Of a stretch of 64,000 nt of DNA, positions 12,831 to 41,477 are shown piece by piece (position 1 is the stretch's first letter; every line of letters begins with the position of its first letter). The stretch lies in the IMG/VR virus record IMGVR_UViG_3300025769_000069; one strand, 5' to 3'. This DNA comes from a virus. A model generated the notes under the pieces. The model made no database searches, had not been told where the DNA came from, and saw only the letters and a program-made list of their open reading frames with translations. Both the position numbers and the translations under genes were made by a program.

Positions 12831-12854
12831 AATAAAGAATTGAAGGATTATATT

Positions 12855-13445
12855 ATGTCTAAAAATAAAAATGTGCATTATGTTAATAATAAAGAATTTT
12901 CTCAATCAGTGGTTGAATACTGTAAAAAAGTTCGTGAAGCGAAAGAGACAGATGATCCTTTACCAGTAGTTCCAAATTATATTGCAGAATGTTTTCTTAA
13001 AATTGCTGAAGGCCTATCACATAAGTCAAACTTTATTCGATATACTTATCGTGAAGAGATGGTAATGGATGCAGTTGAAAATTGTTTAAAAGCAATTGAA
13101 AACTATAATATTGATGCAGCAACAAGATCAGGAAATCCAAATGCGTTTGCTTATTTCACTCAAATCTCGTGGTATGCTTTTCTACGCCGTATTGCCAAAG
13201 AAAAGAAACAGCAAGACATCAAGCTCAAATACTTATCTGAAAGTGGTATCGAACAGTACATAATGACTTCTGAAAATGATGCTGCTGCTAATAACGTTAT
13301 CAATAGTTTTATTGACACATTAAAAGATCGTATTGATAAGGTAAAAGAAAAAGATACAGAATTTAAAATGTATCTTAAAGACGAAAAATTACGTAAAAAA
13401 CGTATTGTGAAAGTAGATTCTGATTTACAAGATTTTATGGAATGA
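12855..13445 (+). CDS. gp55: Late-transcription sigma factor
   Basis: HYVNNKEF, YTYREEMVMDAVENC, NAFAYFTQI. Confidence 0.95.
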   Translation: MSKNKNVHYVNNKEFSQSVVEYCKKVREAKETDDPLPVVPNYIAECFLKIAEGLSHKSNFIRYTYREEMVMDAVENCLKAIENYNIDAATRSGNPNAFAYFTQISWYAFLRRIAKEKKQQDIKLKYLSESGIEQYIMTSENDAAANNVINSFIDTLKDRIDKVKEKDTEFKMYLKDEKLRKKRIVKVDSDLQDFME

Positions 13446-17169: not shown

Positions 17170-18108
17170 ATGTCTAATTTTTTATGGGTCGAGAAGTATC
17201 GACCAAAAACTATTTCTGAAACTATCCTTCCTTCATCATTAAAACAAACGTTTCAGAATATGGTAGATGCTGGCGAATTGCAGAATATGCTTTTCGCTGG
17301 CACTGCCGGTCTTGGTAAGACTACAGTGGCTAGAGCTCTGTGCAATGAGATCGGCGCTGATTATATTGTAATCAATGGTTCTGAAGAAGGTAACATTGAT
17401 ACACTTCGCGGTAAGATAAAACAATTTGCGTCTACTGTATCATTACAAGGAGGAGTTAAAGTTGTTATTCTCGACGAAGCAGATTATCTCAATCCACAAT
17501 CAACTCAACCAGCTCTTCGTGGATTCATTGAAGAGTTTTCTAACAATTGCAGATTCATTCTCACATGTAACTTTAAAAATCGTATTATTGCTCCTTTGCA
17601 TTCTCGTTGCGGAGTATATGAATTTAATACCACAAAGAAAGATTTAGCCGATCTTGCTAGTCAGTTTTTTGCTCGTTTTAAATATATACTAGACCAGGAA
17701 GGTGTGGAATATAACAATAAGGGCATGGCAGATCTCATTCTCAAGTATGCCCCCGATTGGAGGAGGGTATTAAATGAAGGACAACGCGCCGCTGCTAGTG
17801 GTCTTCCTATTGATGGGAGCAATAGTGGGTCTATCAATAACAACTCTGTTAATGACTTAGTAATTTATCTTAAAGAAAAAAACTTTAAGAAGATGCGTCA
17901 ATGGGTTGTAAATAATATGGATGTTGAGCCACAAGCTATTATTCGTCAGTTATATGATAACATGAATGAATCTGTGGCTCCTCAATCAATTCCTCAGCTA
18001 GTATTAGTTTTGGCTGAATATCAATATAAAAATGCTTTTGTGGCAGATCATGAATTAAATATGGTAGCCATGATGACTGAAATTATGGCACAGGTGAATT
18101 TTAAATGA
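17170..18108 (+). CDS. gp44: Clamp loader large subunit
   Basis: WVEKYRP, GLGKTT, DEAD, SRC. Confidence 0.96.
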   Translation: MSNFLWVEKYRPKTISETILPSSLKQTFQNMVDAGELQNMLFAGTAGLGKTTVARALCNEIGADYIVINGSEEGNIDTLRGKIKQFASTVSLQGGVKVVILDEADYLNPQSTQPALRGFIEEFSNNCRFILTCNFKNRIIAPLHSRCGVYEFNTTKKDLADLASQFFARFKYILDQEGVEYNNKGMADLILKYAPDWRRVLNEGQRAAASGLPIDGSNSGSINNNSVNDLVIYLKEKNFKKMRQWVVNNMDVEPQAIIRQLYDNMNESVAPQSIPQLVLVLAEYQYKNAFVADHELNMVAMMTEIMAQVNFK

Positions 18109-18689
18109 ATTGCGTAATATATGATTTTGAAACTTTTAGTGGCGTTCCTGCAACCGGGGCTGCTATTTCAATGGCAGTACTTAAGTTTGATGAGAATCGC
18201 TATGAATCTAATCCATACACATATGAAGAATTATTAGAACAAACTGATTACATTAAGTTTGACGTAAAAGAACAAGTGCATAAGTACAAACGTGTTGTTG
18301 ATATGGAAACTGTTAAATGGTGGAACTCTCAAGGTGAGTCAGCCAAGAAACTAATTAAACCATCTCCTGAAGACAGATCAATTGAAGACCTTTGGCAGTT
18401 TTTTGTAGACTATACAAAAGGTATGGATATTAAAAAAGTCTATACTCGTGGTAATGGCTTTGATCCTATTATCTTTGAAAGTATTGTACATTCGTTTGGA
18501 AAAGGTGTACCATACCCTTGGTGGACTATTCGCGATACACGTTCAATGCTAGATGGTTTATTATGGGGATCTGGTGCTGATAATAAATTTATTCCAAACG
18601 GACTAGAAGAAAAATTTATCCACCATGATCCTCGCCATGATATTGTTATGGATGTTATGCGCATGCAAACTGTAGTAGGTTGTCTATGA
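18105..18689 (+). CDS. dexA: DEDDh 3'-5' exonuclease (DexA-like)
   Basis: DFET, RGNGFD, RDTRS, HDPRHD. Confidence 0.8.
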   Translation: MNCVIYDFETFSGVPATGAAISMAVLKFDENRYESNPYTYEELLEQTDYIKFDVKEQVHKYKRVVDMETVKWWNSQGESAKKLIKPSPEDRSIEDLWQFFVDYTKGMDIKKVYTRGNGFDPIIFESIVHSFGKGVPYPWWTIRDTRSMLDGLLWGSGADNKFIPNGLEEKFIHHDPRHDIVMDVMRMQTVVGCL

Positions 18690-19066
18690 ATCACTTTGAT
18701 TATTTAAAAGCAATTAATGAAACAAAAGAAGATATTATGATAACTGAAGAATGCGAAAAAGCATATAATCCATTTATGGTAAATCGCGGTCTTAGTTACT
18801 TTTATGATACTGCAGCCATAGCTAATATGCTAAATCAATACCATCATACTGATAAAAAACTTCAATTTCACTTTCTTATAAATACGATTAGAAAACGTAG
18901 ACGATTTTCGAAATGGAATAAACCTGAGTCAGATAATGATATTGGAGCGATTAAAGAGTATTATGGCTATAGTAATAAACAAGCTAAACAAGTTCTCTCC
19001 CTGTTATCACCTGACCAAATTAAAAATATAAAAGAGAAGGTGAGTAAAGGTGGAAGAAGAAAATAA
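18686..19066 (+). CDS. gp62: Clamp loader small subunit
   Basis: YNPFMVNRGLS, RKRRRFSKW, EYYGYS. Confidence 0.9.
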   Translation: MNHFDYLKAINETKEDIMITEECEKAYNPFMVNRGLSYFYDTAAIANMLNQYHHTDKKLQFHFLINTIRKRRRFSKWNKPESDNDIGAIKEYYGYSNKQAKQVLSLLSPDQIKNIKEKVSKGGRRK

Positions 19067-19460
19067 TTTAGTAGAATGGTCTCCAGATAAAATGCTGGAA
19101 ATAACCATTAATCAACCAGACGATTTTTTAAAAGTTAGAGAAACTCTTACAAGAATGGGAGTTGCTTCTCGTAAAGATAAAAAATTATTTCAATCATGCC
19201 ATATCTTACATAAACAAGGTCGATATTTTATAGTTCACTTTAAAGAGTTGTTTATGCTAGACGGAAAGAAAGCTAATTTAGAATCTAATGACATTGCTCG
19301 TAGAAATACTATTGTAACATTATTGAGCGATTGGGGATTAGTTGATATGGTTAAAAATGAAGAATTAGAAGTTGCTCCATTACGTCAAATTAAAGTAATT
19401 TCTTTCAAAGAAAAAGATCAATGGGAACTTTGTCCAAAATATAATATTGGAAATAAGTAA
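19050..19460 (+). CDS. regA: Translational repressor RegA
   Basis: DDFLKVRETLTRMG, CHILHKQGRYFIVHFKELF. Confidence 0.96.
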   Translation: MEEENNLVEWSPDKMLEITINQPDDFLKVRETLTRMGVASRKDKKLFQSCHILHKQGRYFIVHFKELFMLDGKKANLESNDIARRNTIVTLLSDWGLVDMVKNEELEVAPLRQIKVISFKEKDQWELCPKYNIGNK

Positions 19461-19466
19461 AAAAAA

Positions 19467-19481
19467 TGCATAGCGGCTATG
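19467..19481. promoter_or_regulatory. Palindromic LysR-type (T-N11-A) candidate operator
   Basis: TG-CATAGC-G-GCTATG, with a second GCATAGC half-site at 19490. Confidence 0.45.
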
Positions 19482-19504
19482 TACATTTGGCATAGCAATA
19501 ACTA

Positions 19505-19512
19505 TATAAATA
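19505..19512 (+). promoter_or_regulatory. T4-type late promoter
   Basis: TATAAATA before the hsp20 leader. Confidence 0.75.
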
Positions 19513-19517
19513 TTATC

Positions 19518-19574
19518 GGAGTGCGGATGGTCCGGCTCCACTTTAATCTTGCTTGACATAAGGAGATAACAATG
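19518..19574 (+). promoter_or_regulatory. ROSE-like RNA thermometer in the hsp20 5' UTR
   Basis: AUCUUGCUU pairs with AAGGAGAU (the SD) leaving a bulged G; UUGCU ROSE motif; a second hairpin upstream. Confidence 0.75.
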
Positions 19575-20036
19575 ACAGGCTTACAAACACTATTCCCGCG
19601 TTCATCTTTTGTTGGTTTTGACCATCTATTTAATGAGCTTGAGTTTACAGCAAAACATGCTCAAGATCACTACCCACCCCACAACATTCTTAAGACCGGC
19701 GATACCGAATATCTTATCGAATTGGCTGTGGCCGGATTTAGCAAAGATGAATTAAATATTGAATTCAAGGATCGTACCTTGACAGTGACAGGGGAACACG
19801 AATCAAAAGGTCGCGAATACATTCATCGTGGTATTTCCACCAAGAAGTTCAAACGCACCTTCAGGCTGTCTGAGCACGTAAAAGTGCATGGAGCAGATCT
19901 TAAAGACGGAGTATTGTCAATTGACTTGAAATATGAAGTTCCAGAAGAAATGCGTCCTCGTAAAATCGCAATTGGTCATTACGAGGAACTAACAAATGAC
20001 ACAGACACTAAACAGCTTCTTCAAGAAGCTAATTAA
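19572..20036 (+). CDS. hsp20: Small heat-shock protein (Hsp20/IbpA-like)
   Basis: YPPHNI, ELAVAGF, HRGIS, DGVLSI, PRKIAI. Confidence 0.95.
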   Translation: MTGLQTLFPRSSFVGFDHLFNELEFTAKHAQDHYPPHNILKTGDTEYLIELAVAGFSKDELNIEFKDRTLTVTGEHESKGREYIHRGISTKKFKRTFRLSEHVKVHGADLKDGVLSIDLKYEVPEEMRPRKIAIGHYEELTNDTDTKQLLQEAN

Positions 20037-20220
20037 CGATTATTATGTAGCTAAAGCAATTAAACAAACAGAAAATGAATTGCGTAAGCTAACTGATAAA
20101 GAATTGAACGATATTGGTATTAGCAGAAGTGAAATTTATGCTATTGCTAGACAAGATGCAGATATGAGAAGATCCCATCTCATAGCGCCTTTTAACCCTA
20201 ACCTAAGAGGATTTGTCTAA
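19996..20220 (+). CDS. DUF1127 (YjiS-like) small protein
   Basis: ELRKLTDKELNDIGISRSEI signature. Confidence 0.85.
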   Translation: MTQTLNSFFKKLINDYYVAKAIKQTENELRKLTDKELNDIGISRSEIYAIARQDADMRRSHLIAPFNPNLRGFV

Positions 20221-29862: not shown

Positions 29863-31229
29863 ATATTAATATTGAACAAACAGTCTTGCGCAATGTTCTT
29901 ACAAATGAGAAATATATGCGCAAGGTTTTACCATTTGTAAAACCAGAATATTTTGAAGGTGTTTATCGACAACTATTTAAAGAAGTAGCTAAATATGTTG
30001 CAAAATATAATCGCTTGCCAACAATGGAATCATTTAAGATTGAAGTAGATCAATCAGATAAATTCAATGACGAACAATACCAGCATGCCGTAGAAATTAT
30101 TCCAAATGTATTTACTCATGAAAAAGTAGATGACAAGTGGCTTATAGATACTACTGAGAAATGGTGCCAAGATCGTGCTGTTTATAATGCAATCATGGAA
30201 TCCATTAGTATTATTGATGGTAAACATCAGAGCTTAACTAAGAATGCTTTACCAGATATTCTTACCAAAGCTTTGGCGGTATCCTTTGACACTAACATTG
30301 GCCATGATTATATTGAAAACGCTGATAGTCGATATGAGTTTTATCATGAAAAAGAAGAACGTCTTCCATTCGATTTAGAATATTTTAATAAAATTACAAA
30401 GGGTGGTCTTCCTAATAAAACACTGAATATTGCTCTTGCTGGCACTGGTGTTGGTAAATCTCTCTTTATGTGTCATGTAGCTGCAGCAGCATTAACTCAA
30501 GGTAAGAACGTACTTTATATTACATTAGAAATGAGTGAAGAGCGTATCGCTGAACGCATAGATGCCAATCTTTTAGATGTGCCAATAGATCAATTAGAAT
30601 CATTATCAAAAGAAATGCTGTTGAATAAAGTTTCTACTATTGCTGCTCGTACTAATGGGAAATTAATTATAAAAGAATATCCAACTGGCCAAGCACATGC
30701 TAATCATTTCAGAGGCTTATTAAATGAGCTCAAGTTAAAAAAGAATTTTGTTCCAGAGATTATTTTTATTGACTATTTAAATATTTCTGCATCAGCAAGA
30801 ATGAAAGGTATGGGAGGTGCTATTAACTCTTATTCTTATATTAAAGCGATTGCTGAAGAAATTCGTGGTTTGGCTGTGGAATTTAATGTGCCAATTATGT
30901 CAGCTACTCAAACAACTCGTTCTGGATATTCTAATTCAGATGTTGGTTTGGAAGATACTTCAGAATCATTTGGCTTACCGGCAACCGCTGATTTAATGTT
31001 TGCTTTAATTTCTAATGACGAGCTAGCTGCGAATGGCCAAATTATGGTAAAGCAATTAAAGAATAGATACAACGATCCAAATATAAATAAACGATTTGTT
31101 GTAGCTGTGGATAGATCTAAAATGAGACTATTCGATGTAGACAATCCAGATGCTGGATTAGTTGATGATACTCCGGCTTTTGATAAGTCGGAAGTAAATA
31201 AAAGATTTGAAGATTTTAAATTGGAGTAA
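29859..31229 (+). CDS. gp41: Replicative DnaB-like helicase
   Basis: AGTGVGKS, IDYLNI, SESFGLPATAD, KQLKNRY. Confidence 0.96.
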   Translation: MNINIEQTVLRNVLTNEKYMRKVLPFVKPEYFEGVYRQLFKEVAKYVAKYNRLPTMESFKIEVDQSDKFNDEQYQHAVEIIPNVFTHEKVDDKWLIDTTEKWCQDRAVYNAIMESISIIDGKHQSLTKNALPDILTKALAVSFDTNIGHDYIENADSRYEFYHEKEERLPFDLEYFNKITKGGLPNKTLNIALAGTGVGKSLFMCHVAAAALTQGKNVLYITLEMSEERIAERIDANLLDVPIDQLESLSKEMLLNKVSTIAARTNGKLIIKEYPTGQAHANHFRGLLNELKLKKNFVPEIIFIDYLNISASARMKGMGGAINSYSYIKAIAEEIRGLAVEFNVPIMSATQTTRSGYSNSDVGLEDTSESFGLPATADLMFALISNDELAANGQIMVKQLKNRYNDPNINKRFVVAVDRSKMRLFDVDNPDAGLVDDTPAFDKSEVNKRFEDFKLE

Positions 31230-41262: not shown

Positions 41263-41477
41263 TGCAAAGAGCAGGCAAAACACATAAAGCCGCTATGGGT
41301 GGTGATGGTCGTATCGATCTTCGTGAGTTGATTGATTTTATGGAGCGTTGTGAAAATGTTCTAGAACGTGAAAATGAACCTGATGTTGCATTTTATTTTG
41401 GTCAAATAAAAGAATTTCTACGGGACAATCCACATAAAGGCTTAAAGGAAGACGCAGGTAGAATTCTAGGACTATAA
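41262..41477 (+). CDS. Hypothetical protein
   Basis: SD GGAGG; coupled. Confidence 0.6.
   Translation: MQRAGKTHKAAMGGDGRIDLRELIDFMERCENVLERENEPDVAFYFGQIKEFLRDNPHKGLKEDAGRILGL

Follow-up and report, generated by a model that had tools for sequence, protein, structure and literature searches.

The closest described relatives of the element considered here are the ROSE-type leaders of proteobacterial ibpA/hsp20 genes. The accessible text of one study defines the ROSE motif as U(U/C)GCU and describes a short type with two hairpins; in the Pseudomonas leaders of this type the second hairpin melts with heat, whereas the first does not, and the temperature range over which these thermometers respond is 25–42 °C (Krajewski, Nagel and Narberhaus 2013, PMC3669281). 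Here we describe a leader of this kind in a virus. It occupies positions 19505–19574 of a 64,000-nucleotide (nt) stretch of viral DNA, IMG/VR record IMGVR_UViG_3300025769_000069, which is called the window throughout, and it precedes a small heat-shock gene of the hsp20/ibpA type. We read the gap between the phage genes regA and hsp20 as a late promoter of the T4 type and, behind it, a short ROSE-type leader with two hairpins for translational control, related to the ROSE elements of proteobacterial ibpA/hsp20 genes, and put the probability of this reading at roughly 60%. Judged by sequence comparison, the element is a well-supported and widely conserved ROSE-type leader in a new setting, namely a phage, a late promoter and a weak helix flanked by A-U pairs; by analogy with its bacterial relatives, a function as a thermometer is likely.

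The gene hsp20 is among the few 'host-like' genes common to nearly all T4-like cyanophages, and it is also frequent in pelagiphages. Its control in phages is not described in the searchable literature, and a full-text search, with subscription-only papers and supplements outside its reach, found no description of a ROSE-type or any other thermometer on a phage hsp20 gene. The paper on Methylophilales phage Melnitz, in the part available, mentions hsp20 and has nothing on its regulation, and the accessible part of a comparison of cyanomyoviruses lists hsp20 as a core gene with a possible role in capsid maturation. Two papers on cyanophage small heat-shock proteins (sHSPs) make no mention of thermometers or untranslated regions (UTRs), and a 2024 review, as far as its open text extends, goes no further than the speculation that viral RNAs could behave like thermometers. 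The word 'phage' is absent from the study of cyanobacterial hsp17/hspA leaders (Cimdins et al. 2014, PMC4152365).

The leader in the window consists of two hairpins separated by a spacer of 6 nt. Hairpin I (19518–19539, + strand), with the sequence GGAGU[G]CGGA-UGG-UCCGGCUCC, is a G+C-rich stem of 9 base pairs (bp), whose pairs run from 19518-19539 to 19527-19531 with G19523 bulged. Hairpin II, the presumed sensor (19546–19567, + strand), pairs the strand opposite the Shine-Dalgarno sequence (anti-SD), AUCUUGCUUG, with UAAGGAGAU around a loop of ACA, leaving G19551 bulged. Written with its bulge, the anti-SD strand is AUCUU[G]CUUG, and its pairs, numbered by the last two digits of 195xx, are A46-U67, U47-A66, C48-G65, U49-A64, U50-G63, C52-G62, U53-A61 and U54-A60, plus G55-U59. 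The bulged G falls within UUGCU (19549–19553, + strand), an instance of the ROSE motif U(U/C)GCU. The Shine-Dalgarno (SD) sequence, AAGGAG (19560–19565, + strand), is invariant in the clade of close relatives examined below and lies 6 nt 5′ of the ATG start codon of hsp20 (19572–19574, + strand), which is unpaired in the leader fold. RNAfold, given the leader up to the AUG, returns exactly hairpins I and II at −14.9 kcal/mol; the folding energy of hairpin I is −10.2 kcal/mol, and 7 of 200 shuffles fold as well. The two hairpins and the bulged G over the SD, which the original prediction had drawn from the letters alone, are thus each present within 19505–19574, both in the sequence and in the RNAfold structure. 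The predicted hsp20 gene downstream is also there: an IbpA-like open reading frame (ORF) of 154 amino acids (19572–20036, + strand) matches the Pfam HSP20 family (PF00011, E 8.4e-19) and PHROG 432 (E 6.5e-36).

It is the comparison among relatives that marks the leader as more than chance, since the fold of the single sequence is no better than that of shuffles. The Hsp20 family of the window has 585 confirmed matches on viral contigs from uncultured viruses and more than 1300 related metagenome proteins. The best 80 of the 585 viral-contig matches were kept, 78 of which had at least 72 nt upstream, and these yielded 49 distinct leaders, aligned by MAFFT (alignment A1), which is fitted to no structure. 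Standard pairs fill 95.5% of the 803 pair cells of this alignment, compared with 41–58% when the partners are slid by 1–3 columns, and the observed covariation was reached by 0 of 500 shuffles. RNAalifold on the 49 leaders independently gives both helices. In hairpin I, both sides change in 7 of the 9 pairs; one pair, for example, is G-C in 21 leaders, A-U in 25 and U-G in 3. Seven of the eight pairs of hairpin II carry no covariation signal inside the clade because the anti-SD octamer UCUUGCUU and AAGGAGA are invariant in all 49 leaders; at its closing pair, 25 leaders have AU, 12 have UA and the other 12 are unpaired. An invariant non-coding word of 8 nt amid variable flanks needs an explanation, and the wider comparison supplies it. 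The form of hairpin I, 5′ of hairpin II, recurs in 50 of 50 clade leaders and, as a first hairpin of the phage type with a bulged G, in 69 of 77 bacterial relatives, as against 0–11% of shuffles (11% for the bacterial set). A strict pattern for hairpin I had missed two phage groups whose inner stem is only 2 bp long, and a looser pattern with shuffled controls was used.

For the wider comparison, a covariance model (R1) was built from the window's clade alone. Within the window itself R1 gives one strong hit, the hsp20 leader. Weak hits in the window (41389–41445 on the − strand with 15.2 bits and 29866–29918 with 11.9 bits) and in the loci L428–L430 were set aside as noise, none of them lying upstream of a chaperone gene. 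Among the loci searched from a GenBank phage collection (L081–L084, L165–L174), R1 finds 11 of 15. Its scores on hsp20 leaders are 53 bits for Methylophilales phage Melnitz, 33.9 for C48C1, 25.4 for Synechococcus phage S-SM2, 25.4 and 21.2 for the Pelagibacter phages HTVC103P and HTVC115P, and 20.4, 17.5, 16.6, 14.7 and 14.1 for AG-345-P14, S-SSM5, P-TIM40, Atu_ph07 and Phosso, respectively. R1 misses S-TIM5, S-B68 and Vibrio phage PWH3a-P1. By eye, the element is present in the S-TIM5 group, where SD and anti-SD have changed together (CCACGCUU/AAGGUGG), and in S-B68, with the compensatory combination UUUACGCUU/GAGGUAAA; a further viral locus (L311) likewise shows a compensatory change of SD and anti-SD (AUAACGCUU/GGAGGUUAU). 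No convincing element precedes hsp20 of Vibrio phage PWH3a-P1, either with R1 or by eye.

Four further scans of viral contigs contributed 246 loci, and together with the first 80 and the cultured phages there were 326 loci with at least 80 nt upstream. These gave 214 leaders distinct in their last 50 nt, 203 of which could be anchored on [A/C/U]GC...GG. A bulged-G hairpin over the SD with at least 6 of 7 pairs is found in 194 of the 214 distinct viral leaders (91%), compared with 3.6% when the 5′ side is shuffled. Its carriers include cyanophages, pelagiphages and a methylophage, and the hsp20 leaders of cyanophages follow the proteobacterial bulged-G pattern. When 100 diverse viral hsp20 loci were searched (12 GenBank records and 88 of 147 representatives, near-duplicates excluded), R1 matched 71 at E ≤ 1. 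A model-fitted alignment of 72 diverse viral leaders has double changes in 13 of 17 pairs, including all nine of hairpin I. In hairpin II, pairing across these 72 leaders reaches 99.8% for the six core pairs, with CG/AU/GC and UA/AU/CG alternatives, but no more than 52% for the two outer ones. What is conserved is thus a helix of 6 bp, CU(C/U)[G]CUU over AAGGAG, that contains a bulged G.

The late promoter, another part of the original prediction, has found support. The T4-type late promoter octamer TATAAATA lies at 19505–19512 (+ strand), and the window encodes a gp55-like late sigma factor (12840–13442, + strand; PHROG 234, 'late sigma transcription factor', E 2.1e-52). The octamer is nearly invariant among relatives: the 49 distinct clade leaders have TATAAATA in 39 cases, GATAAATA in five, TATATATA in four and none in one, and TATAAATA or a one-base variant stands 0–5 nt ahead of the first paired base of hairpin I in 48 of them. 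Its columns are 91–100% conserved across 44 distinct, otherwise unrelated upstream contexts, and there is no conservation farther upstream. The 64-kb window holds 17 copies of TATAAATA, where 8.7 are expected, and 15 of the 17 are on the + strand; these are mostly placed just 5′ of structural genes, several of them preceding the sheath, portal, protease, tube and endolysin genes. An octamer, no conserved −35 element and a phage that encodes gp55 are together what characterises a late promoter of the T4 type. T4 late transcripts begin about 6 nt past the octamer. By analogy, the transcript would be predicted to start about 6 nt 3′ of the octamer in the window, at or beside the first base of hairpin I. 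Other promoters stand ahead of the same leader elsewhere, TTGACA-N17-TATAAT in the podoviruses HTVC103P and HTVC115P and CTTGAAA in Atu_ph07, with TATAAATA in myoviruses. The leader has been kept in phage groups with differing promoters, which argues that selection acts on the RNA; if the leader works like its bacterial relatives, regulation must do so too.

A number of results weigh against reading the leader as a ROSE-type regulator. As a single sequence, the whole leader folds about as well as expected by chance (z −1.2, to −1.5; 22 of 200 shuffles fold as well), and the hairpin II region reaches only −3.2 kcal/mol at 37 °C, which 29 of 200 shuffles match. Seven of the eight pairs of hairpin II never vary within the clade and so provide no information either way, and the covariation seen in the wider comparison comes from an alignment fitted to R1 (A5) or from a motif-anchored script, both of which are biased towards structure. 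In the leader alone, the ROSE pairing has a probability above 0.5 in 46–47 of the 49 leaders at 10–30 °C and in 44 at 37 °C; once 15 nt of coding sequence (CDS) are added, this holds for only 0–1 of the 49, and with 30 nt of CDS for 28 at 10 °C and 4 at 37 °C. Sea temperature, moreover, is nearly constant within one infection cycle.

Searches with the Rfam models, proposed in the original prediction as a check, returned only sub-threshold support. Among 4227 families the only plausible match is ROSE_3 (RF02523), exactly on the leader and over the full model (1–69; E 0.034), at 21.7 bits where the gathering score is 43; the best score among the window and its relatives is 28.8 bits. ROSE_3 matches appear in 8 of the 20 related loci searched (20 of the 80), at 20.5–28.8 bits and always on the hsp20 leader, and the other 12 have no ROSE_3 row at E ≤ 10. 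Neither ROSE (RF00435) nor ROSE_2 gives a match, in the window at E ≤ 10 or in the 20 relatives. Certified membership of ROSE_3 was accordingly rejected, the window and its 20 relatives all scoring under the gathering score, and we therefore read the element as a ROSE-type leader, not as a certified member. What stands of the ROSE assignment is the pair of hairpins with UUGCU facing the SD, a bulged G and an unpaired AUG; an Rfam gathering score, G-C clamps and a sigma-32 promoter are not found. In place of G-C flanks, U47-A66 and A46-U67 lie below the core of hairpin II and U54-A60 and G55-U59 above it. The Pseudomonas leaders all have G-C pairs around the core of ROSE motif and SD, and opening the upper flanking G-C pair abolished repression in P. 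putida, according to the accessible text (PMC3669281).

The Rfam ROSE models are narrow, because leaders from Rhodobacteraceae that are clearly of the ROSE type stay below a gathering score of 45 bits (32.9–37.4 bits). A Pseudomonas ibpA locus (L084), deposited under the label of an unverified 'phage', exceeds the gathering score of ROSE_3 with 69.2 bits, and 16 of the 19 bacterial loci searched have no ROSE row. A search with a three-sequence Hsp20 alignment placed the closest cellular relatives of the protein in the alphaproteobacteria, at 43–53% identity. The leaders of these relatives have an SD hairpin of the form AUCGCU(C/U)...GGAGGAU and an extra middle hairpin, which the phage leaders lack. 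A short cellular form does exist: among 151 sampled alphaproteobacterial genomes, R1 has matches at E ≤ 0.01 in five. The best of these leaders (L426; genome G013, C4:404127–404190; 46.2 bits) is a short leader 5′ of the genome's own hsp20 gene, in which AAUCUUGCUU..AAGGAGAU is identical to the window; the locus has 29% GC and a TTGACA-type promoter and sits in an alphaproteobacterial genome of 1.6 Mb, on a large chromosomal contig at least 404 kb long. The nearest match to its Hsp20 is the protein of Pelagibacter phage HTVC103P, at 46.5% identity; identity to the window protein is just 37%. No host donor can be named, because even the genome with the best leader has an Hsp20 only 37% identical, and the closest cellular proteins reach no more than 43–53%.

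Two side observations arose from the same searches. In an alphaproteobacterium of about 2 Mb (G088), short two-hairpin ROSE-like leaders stand on genes other than hsp20, preceding rpoH-like sigma factor and clpB-like genes (L427, C6:6478–6545, 33.8 bits on R1; L431, C24:9260–9326, 27.4 bits). Contigs of Verrucomicrobiales and Marinovum metagenome-assembled genomes (MAGs; L085/L423 and L086/L422) encode Hsp20 proteins 48–51% identical to the window protein over its full length, including the acidic C-terminal tail, behind leaders that follow TATATATA-like words and score 41–50 bits on R1; these contigs may be of phage origin and have ended up in bacterial MAGs during binning.

Folding predictions suggest a device that is weaker than its bacterial counterparts and, in the window's clade, possibly one with two states. 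Hairpin II alone is predicted to melt at 50–56 °C in the phage groups, compared with 68 °C in bacterial relatives, 76 °C in the Pseudomonas locus (L084) and 74 °C in Salmonella ibpA. Going by these relative numbers, a melting temperature lower by about 20 °C would bring the phage device down to temperatures found in surface waters; the absolute nearest-neighbour predictions, as the modelling itself indicates, are not reliable for this leader. Melting curves were not used as support, because their outcome shifts with the length of CDS included. What displaces the ROSE pairing when 15 nt of CDS are added is a pairing of the anti-SD with codons 2–3. In the window this alternative is the minimum free energy fold with 15 nt of CDS, and the SD is then predicted to be about 80% unpaired at every temperature. 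Codons 2–3, ACA GGC (19575–19580, + strand), are complementary to GCUUG(U) of the anti-SD and thus a possible second partner for it. ACA and GGC are each found in 46 of 46 distinct CDS variants, whereas Gly15 and Pro36 use four codons each. A duplex of anti-SD and codons 2–3 at −6 kcal/mol or below is predicted in 74% of 50 clade leaders, compared with 15% of later windows of the same CDS and 0–9% in other phage groups. When both folds are imposed on the 49 leaders, the ROSE fold comes out ahead in 36 at 5 °C, in 28 at 20 °C and in 5 at 37 °C; for the window, the difference in fold energy is +0.8 kcal/mol at 5 °C and has fallen to −1.5 kcal/mol at 37 °C. The two folds are nearly isoenergetic, with a predicted crossover at about 20–26 °C, and these differences lie within the error of the energy model.

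The invariance of codons 2–3 and their complementarity to the anti-SD suggest a two-state switch, proposed here for the first time, in which GCUUG(U) would pair either with the SD (off) or with ACAGGC of codons 2–3 (on). The codon 2–3 pattern counts as one evolutionary event, because it is confined to one clade. Synonymous variation is low in the next codons too: for codons 4–7 (19581–19592), the 46 CDS variants use GTA for 30 of 31 Val, CAA for 30 of 30 Gln, TCA for 26 of 28 Ser and CTA for 42 of 45 Leu, and synonymous sites vary freely from codon 8 on. From this codon usage, a constraint at the RNA level seems to reach to about +21. Taken jointly, the phage hsp20 leaders might form a branch of ROSE elements tuned to the cold and kept through repeated exchange of promoters, the cyanophages included, from which the window's clade would have moved on to a two-state switch; we offer this wider picture tentatively and consider it possible, with the odds well against it.

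The alternative that survives best is a fixed structural element without a sensor, in which the 5′ hairpin would lend stability to the late mRNA and the weak SD hairpin would hold translation down at a fixed level, with no physiologically relevant change in output across the temperatures that these phages encounter. Hairpin I is indeed the better supported helix, the Pseudomonas hairpin I is described, in the text available, as insensitive to temperature and is thought to stabilise the mRNA (PMC3669281), and the median probability of the SD being unpaired, in the leader alone, rises only from 0.02 to 0.10 between 10 and 37 °C. Against this, 194 of 214 distinct leaders retain the bulged G and imperfect pairing, even though repression would be stronger with a perfect helix; experiments have shown a leader of this architecture to be a thermometer in Pseudomonas (PMC3669281, as far as accessible), and hairpins in the phages are weaker throughout than their counterparts in bacterial relatives, which looks like tuning and not neglect. 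We regard the fixed element as unlikely, while taking it seriously.

Less probable still is feedback by the protein, with free phage Hsp20 binding and repressing its own leader until unfolded or aggregating proteins titrate it away, so that the folding load of virion assembly would be sensed instead of, or besides, temperature. Such a circuit has a precedent, in that the IbpA proteins of E. coli, Cedecea and Vibrio each act through a thermometer-type 5′ UTR to repress their own translation (PMC10474464, accessible part). The phage protein is IbpA-like, and positions numbered against a Salmonella IbpA reveal that Y34 and R97 are kept in the window protein and that R93 is kept in most other phage Hsp20s aligned (Melnitz, HTVC115P, S-SM2, S-TIM5 and S-B68), as it is in the Pseudomonas Hsp20. 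The window clade, however, has Lys at the R93 position (RGISTKKFKRTF) and Thr at K98, so that the window protein departs from the residues of IbpA self-repression at two of these four positions, and in the accessible text the R93K mutant of E. coli IbpA loses both self-repression and RNA binding (PMC10474464). Because position 93 is Lys, feedback is less likely in the window clade than in other phages. A signal at the DNA level, in which TGCTT would be a middle-promoter element like the MotA box or a protein site and its complementarity to the SD a coincidence, is highly improbable and was rejected: TGCTTGA in UCUUGCUUGA does resemble the T4 MotA box TGCTT(T/C)A (a search query in the available part of the Melnitz paper), and a sigma-70-like TTGGCA-18-TATTAT overlaps the site (19487–19516), but no −10 element follows at a suitable distance and transcription from there would begin within the CDS, the −35-like TTGGCA is not conserved across the clade, SD and anti-SD co-vary in other phage groups, the CUCGCUU of the HTVC phages does not fit a MotA box, and the motif also occurs in bacterial ROSE leaders, where MotA is absent.

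Under the ROSE-type reading, which we prefer, RNA polymerase carrying gp55 would start the transcript at or beside hairpin I late in infection. Hairpin I would form a stable stem at the 5′ terminus, which probably protects the mRNA and helps hairpin II to fold. In hairpin II the invariant UCUUGCUU would pair imperfectly with AAGGAGA, leaving a bulged G, and so hide the ribosome binding site while the AUG stays free. The weak helix, with six core pairs, A-U flanks and no G-C clamps, would open on warming and yield more Hsp20 at higher sea temperature. We infer occlusion of the SD in vivo, a temperature response and the range of that response from these features, and the temperature gating during virion assembly that the original prediction envisaged would belong with them.

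If the leader works like its bacterial relatives, these phages carry a temperature sensor, or a sensor of protein folding, of their own, independent of the heat-shock regulon of the host. Water temperature would then directly set chaperone output in ocean phages, giving a molecular link between sea temperature and phage production. The hundreds of natural weak ROSE variants would also supply synthetic biology with a ready-made set of RNA thermometers for low temperatures, and the invariant codons 2–3 offer a specific and cheap handle on the switch-like variant of the mechanism.

The surroundings of the leader confirm that it is borne by a phage. On the structural and replication genes around the site, the window is part of a marine T4-like myovirus: PHROG profiles identify terminase, portal, major head protein, sheath and tube, besides the gp55-like sigma factor, and the same window holds sliding clamp, clamp loader, RegA, DNA polymerase, UvsX and UvsY. 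At the DNA level, cultured relatives are matched in regA only, at about 70% identity (the Pelagibacter phages HTVC008M and Mosig, the Methylophilales phage Melnitz, and cyanophages). regA stops at 19460, and the 111-nt gap to hsp20 holds the promoter and the leader. Between the regA stop and the late promoter lie the inverted-repeat words CATAGCGGCTATG ... GGCATAGC (19468–19498, + strand), conserved in the nearest sub-clade only. A terminator scan of this region found none, and no T-run follows the inverted repeat; the repeat could be a weak terminator or processing hairpin of the regA transcript, or a protein site. The sigma-70-like match named above (10/12, + strand) overlaps the late promoter, and its −35-like word is common to some relatives only.

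Two neighbouring genes are recorded as side observations. DUF1127 proteins are small and mainly proteobacterial. An ORF of this family (74 amino acids, 19996–20220, + strand; Pfam PF06568, E 3.1e-8) sits, in this phage, between the host-like chaperone gene hsp20 and the DNA polymerase gene and shares the last 41 nt of hsp20. An exonuclease-like gene (18105–18689, + strand), which matches the Pfam Rv2179c-like 3′-5′ exoribonuclease family (E 2.3e-12) and PHROG 255 (exonuclease), lies between the gp44-like (17170–18108) and gp62-like (18680–19066) clamp-loader genes and overlaps both by a few bases.

Among phages, the temperature-responsive RNA structures with which the leader can be compared are of other kinds. 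Lambda cIII is a phage RNA thermometer. The fourU element of SPbeta blyA, in the text available, is likewise a structure in a phage mRNA that has been proposed or shown to respond to temperature (PMC10586365). Both belong to other structural classes, lie on lysis or lysogeny genes and are each described from single phages, whereas the present leader occurs in hundreds. The cyanobacterial hsp17/hspA leaders, including the 'ROSE-like' avalong thermometer of Anabaena, share with it the placing of an sHSP SD in a short 3′ hairpin, and the avalong anti-SD is ROSE-like; avalong differs in its bulged U and its long first hairpin (Cimdins et al. 2014, PMC4152365). The ibpA leader of E. coli and Salmonella resembles the phage arrangement in that an IbpA-like protein is encoded behind a thermometer-type leader, and differs in that R93, essential there according to the accessible text, is Lys in the window clade, with Thr at K98 (Cheng, Miwa and Taguchi 2023, PMC10474464).

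The nearest comparisons remain those with the ROSE families themselves. Classical ROSE (RF00435) also serves alphaproteobacterial sHSP genes, and the leaders of the alphaproteobacterial relatives share with the phage a first hairpin with a bulged G and an SD hairpin of the type (A)UCGCU..GGAGGA(U); they are longer and G+C-rich, with an extra middle hairpin and heat-shock promoters. A classical ROSE element has three to four hairpins, the window leader two. The Pseudomonas ibpA leaders of ROSE_3 are the best match in form. Like the window leader they are about 55–60 nt long, precede a gene of the IbpA type and begin with a G+C-rich hairpin I that has a bulged G and an AUGC..GG(U/C) core, and in both the SD is held in the 3′ hairpin against U(U/C)GCU while the AUG is unpaired. 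The phage leader differs in several respects: its ROSE_3 score stays under the gathering score, it follows a T4 late promoter in place of a sigma-32 promoter (CTTGAAA..CCCTATCTA at the Pseudomonas locus), its core is flanked by A-U and U-A pairs without G-C clamps, its hairpin II is predicted to melt about 20 °C lower, and codons 2–3 offer the anti-SD of the window's clade another, conserved partner.

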